Shown here piece by piece: positions 9,010-18,628 of a DNA stretch of 29,298 nt. Below the pieces are notes generated by a model. The model was not told the origin of the DNA. It searched no databases and saw only the letters and a list, made by a program, of their open reading frames with translations. Source of the stretch: Anaerolineae bacterium (GTDB lineage Bacteria; Chloroflexota; Anaerolineae; Anaerolineales; UBA4823). Both the position numbers and the translations under genes were made by a program. Numbering within the stretch: the first letter of the stretch is position 1; each line of letters starts with the position of its first letter. The stretch is from NCBI GenBank assembly GCA_041479715.1, contig JBGOYO010000001.1, positions 1 to 29,298 on the forward strand. The letters are read 5' to 3'.

Positions 9010-9017
9010 ATATTTAT
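9010..9017. repeat. Left copy of 8-bp direct repeat ATATTTAT (putative target-site duplication)
   Basis: Immediately abuts the left element end at 9018. An identical copy abuts the distal end at 18621-18628. Confidence 0.75.
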
Positions 9018-9035
9018 CTAGCCATCTGAAAGTTT
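9018..9035. repeat. IS terminal inverted repeat downstream of the transposase
   Basis: CTAGCCATCTGAAAGTTT versus CTAGTCACCTGACAGTTT (reverse complement of 10185-10202 and of 18603-18620), 3 mismatches. Confidence 0.8.
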
Positions 9036-9039
9036 CTGT

Positions 9040-10116
9040 TCATCGATAGGAACACCATATGCTTTTGAAAGGTTGAGCATTGATTACACATTTTTCGATG
9101 AATCGCAAACCGATTTGGAATATGCATAAATCACGACGATCTGTGCGATCGACCAATTTACGCAGGCCATTTCTGATCGTACGGGTGCCGATCGAAATCA
9201 ACCATACATAAAGCAAAACCACTGCCAAGGTCAATCGCGATAAGCGCTCAAAATGTCGGAGCATCGTACTCTCCAGGTCAAATCTATGTTTCTTCATATC
9301 GCCGAACATTTCTTCGATCCACATCCTGCGCCGATAATGCTGTATGGTCATACTCAAATCAGGAAGGTTGGTGGCCAGACACCAAGGTTCTTGCTCACCC
9401 AACCCCCAATAAACCAACAAACTGACCGGATAAATTTCTTGGACGGTCAGGTAGCCCTTTCCCAGCCAGAGACTTTCACCAGGCTGATGGATGAAACTGT
9501 CGAAGGTTCGCCAACCGTTGCTTTCATTGAGCCAGACCCCGGTATCACTTTTTTGACGCAAGACATAGAACCAATGCCATTTATCCAGCTGCCTCAAGAC
9601 CGTTACAGAACCAAATTCACAGTTGCCGACCATGAAAACGGCTGCTTGACTGGGGATCAACTTGCGCACGTAAGCCAGCAAAGCCATGTGTTTCTCGCTT
9701 CCGCTGTGTCCTTTGATCTGCCTGATCCAGGTCCAGGCAATCGGAATGGTTCTTTTTCGGTAAGTAAGATAGACCATCAACAGTTGATGACCAAAACCGA
9801 TCTTGGTGCCGTCTACGATCAAGCGGATTTCTCCCAAGTTTTGGATTTGTGTTTCCAGCCACATTCGAGCGATGGGTTCATACCACTCGCGCACGCGGAT
9901 AGCGGGATTATCCAACAGCCTGCTCAATCGTCGAGAAGTGCTCAACAACCTGGCTGGTCCTGGAATCTTCCCCGCAATCCGGCTCTGATACACCGATCGA
10001 CTTTCATAAATTCCGACCATCAGCCAGGTGTAGTTCTTAACACGGGTAATTCTTTCCATCGGTCGCAATTGCTGAAGTTCCATAATCAAAGTATGATAGA
10101 GTGCGTTGATCGGCAT
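9040..10116 (-). CDS. IS4-family DDE transposase (358 aa), second catalytic Asp apparently replaced by Asn
   Basis: RBS AAGGAGG 5 nt before ATG (10116). RLIVDGTK is the first D. MVGNCEFGS sits at the second-D position. YRRRMWIEEMFGDMK fits the IS4-family Y-x2-R-x3-E-x6-K (YREK) signature. Confidence 0.88.
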   Translation of the reverse strand: MPINALYHTLIMELQQLRPMERITRVKNYTWLMVGIYESRSVYQSRIAGKIPGPARLLSTSRRLSRLLDNPAIRVREWYEPIARMWLETQIQNLGEIRLIVDGTKIGFGHQLLMVYLTYRKRTIPIAWTWIRQIKGHSGSEKHMALLAYVRKLIPSQAAVFMVGNCEFGSVTVLRQLDKWHWFYVLRQKSDTGVWLNESNGWRTFDSFIHQPGESLWLGKGYLTVQEIYPVSLLVYWGLGEQEPWCLATNLPDLSMTIQHYRRRMWIEEMFGDMKKHRFDLESTMLRHFERLSRLTLAVVLLYVWLISIGTRTIRNGLRKLVDRTDRRDLCIFQIGLRFIEKCVINAQPFKSIWCSYR

Positions 10117-10184
10117 GGTATCCTCCTTTTCTTTAGTCAGAATAAGGAGTACATTTATCGTGCCGATCAATCCTTTCTAAATTA

Positions 10185-10202
10185 AAACTGTCAGGTGACT
10201 AG
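10185..10202. repeat. IS terminal inverted repeat upstream of the transposase (internal to the larger unit)
   Basis: AAACTGTCAGGTGACTAG, identical to 18603-18620. Its outer flank (AAATATAT) does not match the left-end flank. Confidence 0.8.
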
Positions 10203-10647
10203 AAATATATTCTCATAAATTGAATATATAAAACTTTACCGATCTTGCAAATGGAGATATATTCTATATAAGTAATTCCAACTTGACTTTAGAAATGAGA
10301 ATTCAGCTTTAGAAAATACATAAACCGAACATAAGATTTATCTCTATTTGCTGTATCACTAGTCAGTTACATGCGAATCAATTTTTGAGCGTAGATGTTA
10401 CCAATAAAAGGAAGTGTATTTGAAGGATGGTGAAAACTCCAGAGAAGTCCGTCAGGGACCAACCCGCTACCATGGCTTTCACAACTTTAAGCGTCCACAA
10501 CAAACGTTAGACCATCAGACAGCTACACAGATTTGTATTAAGCATCAAAAAAGATTACAATCTATCTTTACCTAAATTGAGACATACACCTTGTGTCAGC
10601 CCTATTTTGTGGCTAAGCAAATCCTTTCACCCTAAGGAGTATAAAAT

Positions 10648-16205: not shown

Positions 16206-16231
16206 TCTGTATCATCCAGTAGGTTTTTTAT

Positions 16232-16279
16232 CCGCGAATTTTCGCTAACCTCCATGTTTTTGTTAGCGAAAATTCGCGG
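16232..16279. repeat. Perfect 18-bp inverted repeat (stem-loop) after the binding-protein gene
   Basis: CCGCGAATTTTCGCTAAC (16232-16249) and GTTAGCGAAAATTCGCGG (16262-16279) with a 12-nt loop. No 3' U-tract. Confidence 0.85.
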
Positions 16280-16311
16280 CAATTAATAACTAGGATGAGA
16301 GGTCCCGTGCT

Positions 16312-17079
16312 ATGAATGCAAAAAAAGAACTGAGTCTGTCTGAGGTCTTTGAGTTTATTAGCTCACGCAATTGGGTCGACTTGACTCATGCTTTCGGGCC
16401 AGGGATTCCCCACTGGCCGGGTTTCCCCAACGAACAGCGTGAAACACTATATTATTACGATGAGGGCGTCGGAACCCGGGGTGCAGGGTTTTACGTTCAC
16501 CTGTATGCCCATGTAGGCCAATGGGGAACACATGTAGATCCTCCAGCCCATTTTATTAAAGGCACGCGCACTTTAGACCAGATTGATATCAAAGAAATGA
16601 TCCTACCTTTGGTAGTGTTGGACATCCACAAACAAGTGGAAAAGAACCCTGATTACTGTGTTTCGATGAAAGAAGTAAAAGCCTGGGAAGAGGCACATGG
16701 ATCAATTCCCTTTGGCTGCTTCGTAGCCCTGCGCACGGATTGGTTTAAACGCTGGCCCGACGATACTGCGATGCAGAACGAGGACACTCGGGGGGTAAAG
16801 CATTTTCCTGGTTGGAGTATGGAAGTGCTCAAATACCTTTACGAAGAACGCAAAATTACGGCATCAGGACACGAGACTACCGACACCGGTCCCGGGGTAG
16901 ATTGTTCAAAAGGTGATTATTCGATGGAAACTTATATTCTTGCCACCGACCATTACCAGATCGAACTCCTGGCTAATTTGGATCAAGTGCCGGAATTTGG
17001 GGCACTGGTAGTAGCAGCTTTCCCGAAGCCTAAAAACGGTTCCGGCTTTCCGGCGCGGGTCTTTGCCATCTTACCCTGA
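16312..17079 (+). CDS. Cyclase-family metal-dependent amidohydrolase (kynurenine formamidase/isatin hydrolase-like)
   Basis: DLTH, metal motif WGTHVDPPAHF (HxGTHxDxPxH-type), LRTDW, HFPGWS, GHETTDT, IELLANLDQVP and GSGFPARVFAI. Confidence 0.88.
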   Translation: MNAKKELSLSEVFEFISSRNWVDLTHAFGPGIPHWPGFPNEQRETLYYYDEGVGTRGAGFYVHLYAHVGQWGTHVDPPAHFIKGTRTLDQIDIKEMILPLVVLDIHKQVEKNPDYCVSMKEVKAWEEAHGSIPFGCFVALRTDWFKRWPDDTAMQNEDTRGVKHFPGWSMEVLKYLYEERKITASGHETTDTGPGVDCSKGDYSMETYILATDHYQIELLANLDQVPEFGALVVAAFPKPKNGSGFPARVFAILP

Positions 17080-17399
17080 CCAGACGAAGAATCCAAACGA
17101 ACTAGATTTTTTATGGCTTTTTCAGGCTGTACATGCACCTTGGATCTGTGCAAAATGATGGTTCACCATCAATTAATAAGTGAAATATATACTTTCATAA
17201 TATGAATATAAAGGACTATACTAATCTGGCTAAAGGATATAAATTCTTTATATAATAATTCCCAAATTATTTGGATGGTGTGAACAATATTTTCAGCGAG
17301 GTAATAGCTTGGAATTGATGCAATAAGTAATCTTGCTGAAAAAACTCTGGATACCAAAAACTCAAGAGGTATTGAAAACATTGTAAGAGGAGTGTTATT

Positions 17400-18620
17400 A
17401 TGTCAAAGTTTGCTCGACGAATGACTACTATGGAAAATTCAGCAATTGTTATAAAAAAATTGTTTTCAGCCTTAGTTGACCCAGGTACCATCTCATTTGG
17501 AGGTGGTGCTCCTGCAAATGAAGCCCTACCGGTTGACATTGTCCGTGAAATTACCAACGAGATCATGAGAACTGATAAGAGAGGAATAGAAGCATTGCAA
17601 TATGACGGTATCATGGGAGTTCCAGACCTTCGTGAAGTAGTACTTAAAGAGTTACTGGCACCTAAGGGTGTGAAAGGAAAAGTTGATAATGTAATGATTA
17701 TCAACGGAGGTCTTGAAGCCATGAATCTGCTGTGCCAGGTGTTTATTAATCCCGGTGATATTATTCTCGTAGAATCTCCAACATTTGTCCATTCAGTTGA
17801 AATTTTTGATATGTTCGAGGCTAAATGTATCGCTGTAGAAACAGATGACAGCGGGATGGTGCCCGAGGACCTGGAAGCCAAAATTAAACAATTCAAACCT
17901 AAAATGGTTTATATTATTCCAACATTTCAGAATCCGACGGGGAGGACTTTGCCACAGGATAGAAGACAGCGAATCGCCGAGCTTGGAAGTAAATACGATA
18001 TCATCATTTTGGAGGATGATCCTTACCGCGATATCCGCTATAGCGGAACAGACCTGCTTCCTATCAAAGCGTTTGATAGGACTGGGCATACAATTTTGGC
18101 AAACAGTTTTTCAAAAATATTTTCCCCAGGTACAAGGCTAGGTTATTTATTGGCCAATGATGAAGTAACTGAAAAGCTGATTTATGCTAAATCAGCGACT
18201 AATTCACATACCTCGACGTTCTCTCAAGTAATCTGTGCTGAATTCTTTAAAAGGGGTTATTATCCGGCTCATCTCAAAATGATTTGCGACCTTTATCGTG
18301 AAAGAAGAGATACCATGATCGAGTGTATCGATAAGTTTTTCCCTAAAGGGACCAAAAGGACATTCCCAGATGGTGGTCTGTTCACATGGGTAGAGCTTCC
18401 GGGTAACATCAACACTACTGAACTTTTAACCGAATCTACCTCAAACCCGGATGTAAAAGTTGCTTTTATTGCTGGTGAAGGGTTCTTCACCGAAGGGGGT
18501 GGAAAGGGTAGTAATTGTATGAGAGTCAGCTTTGGTCCCGTTCCTCCCGAGAAAATCCGAATTGGTGCAGAAAGATTAGGCAATCTGATTTGTTCTAAAT
18601 TGAAACTGTCAGGTGACTAG
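17400..18620 (+). CDS. Fold-type I PLP-dependent aminotransferase (LysN/AroAT/KAT-II-like, no HTH)
   Basis: ISFGGGAP, VESPTF, IPTFQNPTG, ILEDDPY, PLP-lysine SFSKIFSPGTRLGY and GGLFTWV. The final codons KLSGD* coincide with the IS end. Confidence 0.9.
   Translation: MSKFARRMTTMENSAIVIKKLFSALVDPGTISFGGGAPANEALPVDIVREITNEIMRTDKRGIEALQYDGIMGVPDLREVVLKELLAPKGVKGKVDNVMIINGGLEAMNLLCQVFINPGDIILVESPTFVHSVEIFDMFEAKCIAVETDDSGMVPEDLEAKIKQFKPKMVYIIPTFQNPTGRTLPQDRRQRIAELGSKYDIIILEDDPYRDIRYSGTDLLPIKAFDRTGHTILANSFSKIFSPGTRLGYLLANDEVTEKLIYAKSATNSHTSTFSQVICAEFFKRGYYPAHLKMICDLYRERRDTMIECIDKFFPKGTKRTFPDGGLFTWVELPGNINTTELLTESTSNPDVKVAFIAGEGFFTEGGGKGSNCMRVSFGPVPPEKIRIGAERLGNLICSKLKLSGD
18603..18620. repeat. Orphan distal IS end (identical copy of 10185-10202)
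   Basis: AAACTGTCAGGTGACTAG. Similarity extends to 28/29 nt over 18593-18621 versus 10175-10203. No second transposase adjacent. Confidence 0.8.
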
Positions 18621-18628
18621 ATATTTAT
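18621..18628. repeat. Right copy of 8-bp direct repeat ATATTTAT (putative target-site duplication)
   Basis: Immediately follows the distal IS end and is identical to 9010-9017. Confidence 0.75.

Follow-up and report, generated by a model that had tools for sequence, protein, structure and literature searches.

In the composite transposons Tn10 (IS10), Tn5 (IS50), and Tn2006 and Tn2009 (with ISAba1), cargo bracketed by insertion sequence (IS) copies is moved by an IS4-family transposase and flanked by a target duplication of 8-9 bp, and in Tn2009 the two IS copies lie in direct orientation (PMC3333477). In Tn2008, also with ISAba1 (PMC3333477), and in the ISEcp1 and ISPme1 modules (transposable modules, TMos; PMC9330008), one IS moves together with adjacent DNA and keeps its internal right end, which gives three ends in all. 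Passenger genes between IS-type ends are also known from transporter IS elements (tIS), from the mobile insertion cassette (MIC) MIC231 of IS231, and from solo inverted repeats (PMC3129680; PMC2266710). Here we describe an element of about 9.6 kb, at positions 9018-18620 of an uncultured Anaerolineae contig, which consists of an IS, its cargo and a distal IS end, and lies between the genes for a NarL-type regulator and a DUF4870 protein. The window, by which we mean the whole stretch of 29,298 nt that was analysed, is all of contig C1 of a metagenome-assembled genome (MAG) of 466 contigs that is 77% complete. The element is a composite transposon that has decayed to a single IS and a solo inverted repeat, a known kind of structure in an unusual host and with metabolic cargo; we put the probability that 9018-18620 is one transposon, formed and arrived in the way proposed below, at roughly 85%.

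The element shares with the first group above its IS4-family transposase, an 8-bp duplication around the whole unit, IS-bracketed cargo and an empty site in relatives, and the direct orientation of the two copies in Tn2009 is the one that we propose for its precursor. It differs in that the window contains one full IS copy, the second being represented by a solo end of 15-18 nt fused to a cargo gene (longer second copies occur only in other samples), and in that its cargo is metabolic rather than drug resistance. Whereas Tn2008 and the ISEcp1 or TMo units terminate in a native look-alike of the IS end, the distal end here appears to be a true IS end from a deleted second copy, and this exact copy displaces the native 3' flank that is found in contigs L054, L059 and L061-L065. 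Unlike tIS, which have two ends only, and MICs, which have no transposase, the element has a transposase and an extra internal end, and this intact right end separates the transposase gene from the cargo. The features that delimit the element are as follows.

9010..9017, unstranded: left copy of the target duplication, ATATTTAT, by direct read; the empty site of congener G018 has one related copy (TTTTTAT).
9018..10202, minus strand: IS4-family insertion sequence of 1185 bp, single copy in the MAG assembly.
9018..9035, plus strand: left terminal inverted repeat, CTAGCCATCTGAAAGTTT, by direct read.
9040..10116, minus strand: intact transposase gene, 358 amino acids (Pfam DDE_Tnp_1, NCBIfam IS4_2 score, YREK motif).
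10185..10202, plus strand: internal right inverted repeat, AAACTGTCAGGTGACTAG, the right end of the IS proper, by direct read.
10203..10210, unstranded: inner flank AAATATAT, by direct read, conserved in L050 and L051.
18593..18605, plus strand: native coding stretch TTCTAAATTGAAA, the putative deletion site; homology to IS-free alleles reaches 18604-18605.
18603..18620, plus strand: orphan right inverted repeat, of which 18606-18620 (CTGTCAGGTGACTAG) is certainly IS-derived.
18621..18628, unstranded: target duplication, right copy, ATATTTAT, with CTATTTAT in its place in L050, L051 and L053.

An earlier note on this DNA, made from the letters alone, had recognized three ends of an IS4-type element at the three inverted-repeat positions given above, and a direct read bears out every coordinate. 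The left and the internal right end are complementary at 15 of 18 positions, and the distal end is the same 18-mer as the internal right end; the likeness of these two extends over 28 nt (18593-18620) with a single mismatch (repeat family D4). ATATTTAT adjoins the left and distal ends but not the internal end, as had also been noticed. The flank of the internal end is like the duplication at 6 of 8 positions, does not match the left flank, and probably survives from a duplication that the IS made on first inserting next to the cargo. The stop codon of the regulator gene occupies 9004-9006 and the duplicated target begins 3 nt downstream of it, in agreement with the same note. In the MAG itself there is one full IS and one extra end only.

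Comparison with congeners shows that the element is an insertion. In 13 of them the matches to the regulator side and to the DUF4870 side lie on one contig, 92-655 bp apart, and in four (G018, G008, G010 and G011), where the gap is 92-127 bp, alignment confirms that the two genes are directly adjacent, which is the arrangement that the note had proposed to look for. The empty site rebuilt from the left flank, one copy of the 8-mer and the right flank aligns end to end with the same four genomes. The closest congener, G018, reads TAATTC-TTTTTAT-AAAGTAAG, with a single target copy, where the window reads TAATTC-ATATTTAT-AAAACAGG. In 40 relatives we found no DNA match to 10203-18592 at any locus, apart from weak ABC-transporter paralogues, and none of them carries the cargo at this site with or without IS ends.

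The same final structure would be expected if the IS alone had inserted at ATATTTAT and the cargo had been added later, by recombination with an incoming IS, cargo and right end, and full-length relatives of the IS with 87% identity are indeed resident in the genus (congeners G001 and G009). We consider this sequence of events improbable, as the right-hand crossover would have had only 15-28 nt of homology, and as neither an IS-only allele nor an allele lacking just 9018-10202 was seen at the site in four other assemblies or in the contigs of four sequencing runs. Those contigs also contain no joint of 9017 to 18629, and they are informative about presence only.

As the window comes from a MAG of 466 contigs, and IS copies commonly cause chimeric joins, the structure might in principle be an assembly artefact, or the matching 8-mers a coincidence. 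Independent assemblies from four other samples have the same junctions: L051 (NCBI GCA_041501145.1), with 99.1% identity, spans everything from the 3' end of the regulator gene through IS, cargo and orphan end to the DUF4870 gene, and L050, L052 and L053 hold parts of this structure. The orphan end is present in all five assemblies of the site. The exact repeat common to the two right ends is 19 nt long, and hence too short for a de Bruijn misjoin. Two fixed 8-mers would be identical by chance with a probability of about 1e-4 (local composition) or 5.5e-5 (8-mer spectrum of the window), ATATTTAT having three occurrences in 29 kb. Together with the match of the rebuilt empty site to congeners, this makes artefact or chance the least probable of all the explanations considered here.

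Relatives of the IS, recovered from Chloroflexota MAGs via the 18-mer of the right end, indicate what kind of duplication the group makes. Perfect duplications are present in 15 of the 25 cases for which both flanks were available (nine of 8 bp and six of 9 bp), and several others have a single mismatch; three ends that seemed to stand alone turned out to be MITEs (short for miniature inverted-repeat transposable elements) with 9-bp repeats. In a family-level genome search, perfect repeats of 8 bp (L016 and L024) and 9 bp (L026) were found directly outside the CTAG ends. An 8-9-bp duplication is the rule for this IS group, and CTAG is part of the element; a 4-bp duplication of CTAG, which the note had raised as a possible counter-observation, we reject because the 8- or 9-bp repeats of other copies sit outside CTAG. 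Many elements of the group are MITEs of 130-350 nt without a transposase (loci L066-L145), and the 18-nt consensus of the left end also closes related IS copies and MITEs. The 9-bp cases among the MITEs cluster in a subfamily with the end CTAGCTACCCGACAGTTT. Two longer elements with perfect duplications, L106 (2634 bp) and L113 (3087 bp), were considered as further cargo carriers and rejected, because in both of them an insert of 1.4-1.9 kb, probably another mobile element, interrupts the transposase gene.

The origin of the orphan end becomes apparent from the aminotransferase gene to which it is fused. Homologues of this protein are about 402 amino acids long and end in ...LICSKLK, and the DNA homology of the window to IS-free alleles (L054, L059, L061-L065) ends at 18604-18605, which means that TTCTAAATTGAAA is native aminotransferase coding sequence; it matches the subterminal IS sequence TTCTAAATTAAAA at 12 of 13 positions. 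The 15 nt that are IS-derived with certainty add LSGD and a stop codon to the aminotransferase, in frame. Other samples preserve more of a distal copy. A 481-nt contig from the soil run X3 consists of 24 nt of the aminotransferase 3' end, ATTTA, and the IS from its left end on to 9469 (a joint of 18605, ATTTA and 9018). Contig L060, from the Joint Genome Institute (JGI), has the same junction as X3 (GTGAAAATTTA, then TTAGCC) leading into a mini-IS of 147 nt, in which 9018-9056 is joined to 10096-10202, and its right end is followed by ACGTTATT and unrelated genes. The distal IS copy thus exists in three states of decay, a long copy (X3), a 147-nt mini-IS (L060) and 15 nt (the window). Going beyond what had been noticed before, these states indicate that the orphan end is what remains of a second IS copy, and that the element descends from a true two-IS composite. 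The earlier description as a minimal composite without a second IS copy holds for the window, with its one full IS, but not for this ancestry.

We considered the X3 joint as a circular junction, and rejected this reading as the distal inverted repeat is absent from it and L060, a linear contig, has this joint too. Metagenome pattern scans gave no match to the left junction predicted for the L060 form (the 8 or 9 bp of its right flank, then the IS left end), and the 26 matches to a junction of aminotransferase and IS left end were all chance occurrences in unrelated sequence, in a collection that does not contain the L060 record.

The distal end could also have arisen in the manner of ISEcp1, with the transposase ignoring the right end of its own IS in favour of a native look-alike that lay downstream of the aminotransferase gene. 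The native 3' flank is partly like the IS end, with AGGTGA in all IS-free alleles, and in L054 the resemblance extends to AAATTAAAAC and CAGGTGA with a 3-nt gap. Yet native sequence has been replaced here by a distal end that equals the true one at 18 of 18 positions, and intermediates with a real second IS copy exist, which makes such a capture very unlikely. The flank of L054 may itself be the scar of a lost IS copy. The dozen or so bases after the native aminotransferase stop vary strongly among L054 (1843-1870), L059, L061 and L065, alleles that are otherwise 96-98% identical to the cargo.

According to the history that we favour, a foreign block would have become the cargo of an IS4-family element in the form of a two-IS composite; the downstream copy would have inserted at the aminotransferase stop codon, in direct orientation to the first. 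This second copy then would have decayed differently in different lineages. In the lineage of the window, a deletion from the native TTCTAAATTGAAA to its close match TTCTAAATTAAAA, which lies immediately internal to the right end of the IS, probably left the terminal inverted repeat alone, fused in frame to the aminotransferase gene. The transposase would then have made its cuts at the left end and the farther of the two right ends, presumably with the cut-and-paste chemistry of IS10 and IS50, and the whole unit would have been pasted into ATATTTAT, 3 nt past the regulator stop codon, with duplication of 8 bp.

The order of the last two steps may have been the reverse. The full composite of IS, cargo and complete second IS could have inserted at this site and its second IS collapsed in place, in which case the orphan end was never a transposon end. 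This possibility, which we take seriously while judging it to fall short of an even chance, differs from the note's reading in the order of events only, and is a sub-case of the history favoured here, compatible with it. Longer forms of the distal copy with an identical aminotransferase/IS junction occur elsewhere, and imply that the distal copy decayed separately in different lineages; furthermore, L050 has A instead of G within the microhomology, as two independent crossovers might produce. On the other side, each of the five assemblies of the site already has the orphan end, and a point mutation, or conversion from the internal end, can account for the G/A difference. The note's claim that the last transposition moved the transposase and 8.4 kb of metabolic genes as one unit is upheld by the empty sites and the duplication as far as movement of the unit is concerned; its further claim, that a lone transposase did so with the orphan end, is less secure, the second copy having perhaps collapsed later.

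Several observations weigh against the history that we favour. The element was found at one site only in its own genome, and the orphan-end form was not seen to have moved twice. An end of 18 nt, or of 28 nt with the native look-alike, may or may not suffice for transposase binding. The right duplication copy in L050, L051 and L053 matches at 7 of 8 positions (CTATTTAT), the left copy in L051 being ATATTTAT, so that the perfect pair of 8-mers is specific to the sequence of this strain; we read the variant as one substitution after an 8-bp duplication. Several related IS copies, for example in G001, have no matching flanks, which could be due to recombination between copies or to chimeric MAG assembly. 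Finally, the G/A difference in L050 could reflect a second, independent collapse in situ, or be just a mutation.

A more far-reaching proposal, which we regard as doubtful, is that the element is a working three-ended IS, in which one transposase would move either the 1.2-kb IS or, via the 18-nt orphan end, the IS together with 8.4 kb, and which would now be spreading a module for valine uptake, transamination and ketopantoate synthesis between Anaerolineae families. Between strains (L051, L053 and L050) the transposon (9018-18620) differs by about 0.25%, and the chromosomal DNA just to its right (19000-21064) by about 4%. Such low divergence agrees with a sweep, or with recombination having recently spread the allele that carries the transposon; if the three-ended element were real, it would reflect a recent gene-specific sweep.

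The assignment to the IS4 family holds because the transposase has a DDE_Tnp_1 domain (PF01609, 30.4 bits against a cut-off of 23) and an exact YREK motif (Y-2-R-3-E-6-K; YRRRMWIEEMFGDMK, residues 261-275, with Y261, R264, E268 and K275), and because the IS has 5'-CT ends; the family named in the note is therefore retained. The score against NCBIfam IS4_2 (NF033591) is 144.8 bits, below the cut-off of 152, a near miss that by profile comparison points to a divergent member rather than excluding membership. IS4 proper differs from IS701, ISH3 and IS1634 (4-6 bp) in its YREK motif and in its direct repeats, which span about 7-13 bp, and the subgroups IS10, IS50 and ISPepr1 are marked by 5'-CT ends together with repeats of 7-9 bp (PMC2266710, Table 1); the present IS shares their YREK motif and termini. 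The repeats are 8 bp here and 8-9 bp in 21 related elements. Targets are mostly AT-rich, as for ISPepr1 (PMC2266710), and with 1185 bp the IS is at or below the size ranges listed for IS10, IS50 and ISPepr1 (PMC2266710, Table 1). Among species-representative genomes, 107 stretches contain the exact 18-nt right end, and nearly all of the 80 of these that were listed are titled Anaerolineae, Anaerolineales or Chloroflexota, which makes an Anaerolineae lineage the probable host.

The cargo comprises eight metabolic genes and one relic.

10550..10583, plus strand: degenerate relic of an aminotransferase 3' end (repeat family D10), 64 nt upstream of panB.
10648..11472, plus strand: panB, ketopantoate hydroxymethyltransferase (Pfam PF02548, E 8e-112).
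11483..16205, plus strand: Liv-type ABC transporter with two ATPases, two permeases and one substrate-binding protein (Pfam ABC_tran twice, BPD_transp_2 twice, Peripla_BP_6).
16312..17079, plus strand: Cyclase-family protein (PF04199).
17400..18620, plus strand: class I/II aminotransferase of 406 amino acids, with its last four codons and its stop supplied by the IS end.

Sequence comparison shows this cargo to be foreign in origin. Congeners have two panB paralogues each, with about 50% amino acid identity to the cargo panB. The segment 10556-17211 is found at 97.4% DNA identity on contigs L175-L180 in other genomic contexts, where another IS, one with an HTH_28/HTH_32 transposase, flanks it, and the LigA from L175 is only 62% identical to G000's own LigA. 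The aminotransferase region likewise occurs at 95.7-98% identity in contexts free of any end of the window's IS, and in L061, L062 and L065 the gene is followed by genes for a ferredoxin and a 2-oxoacid:ferredoxin oxidoreductase. The nearest named homologues are Clostridia proteins with about 77-81% identity for the aminotransferase, and proteins with about 62-67% identity for panB; an exact-protein look-up of the window's panB returned no record.

The IS with the HTH_28/HTH_32 transposase, with ends ...CGACGTGGAATTTCGGTA, bounds the same cargo blocks in other samples, namely upstream of panB in L175-L177, upstream of the aminotransferase gene in L061-L065, and near 8265 and 7245 in L176 and L177, respectively. 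At least two types of IS have acted on the cargo block.

In terms of function, the cargo may provide for uptake of branched-chain amino acids by the Liv-type transporter, their transamination to the 2-oxo acid, with valine to 2-oxoisovalerate as the predicted aminotransferase reaction, and synthesis of ketopantoate from 2-oxoisovaleric acid by PanB. In more distant homologues (L056, L057 and L173) an aminotransferase gene lies directly upstream of panB, and since an aminotransferase relic precedes the cargo panB as well, the link between the two genes appears to be recurrent. Remnants of a second aminotransferase-panB unit seem to be present in the cargo.

The mechanism class of this element is known from resistance transposons, and the locus offers a clear environmental example rather than a new principle. 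The natural intermediates show a two-IS composite decaying into a compact unit with one transposase, and the element illustrates how genes of everyday metabolism are carried by IS4-family elements between uncultured bacteria of soils and sediments that are only distantly related and probably belong to the Chloroflexota. It also holds a lesson for annotation, as routine procedures would report a lone IS beside housekeeping genes and miss the mobility of panB and the transporter genes.

Other features of the region were observed in passing. A direct repeat of about 76 nt with 76% identity is located upstream of panB (10205-10279) and of the aminotransferase gene (17187-17262), with no further copy in the same genome, and mosaic boundaries with other contigs at 17211 and 17241 fall inside or beside it; the repeat could serve both genes as a leader or operator, or mark a hot spot of recombination. 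Between the genes for the binding protein and the cyclase, a perfect 18-nt inverted repeat with a 12-nt spacer (16232-16279) looks like a terminator or an operator. An Rfam scan of 8000-20000 gave no match within the element, and its one match outside is a glycine riboswitch aptamer (RF00504; 19310-19408, plus strand, 47.9 bits, E 2e-7), which lies just to the right of the insertion, upstream of gcvH and gcvP.

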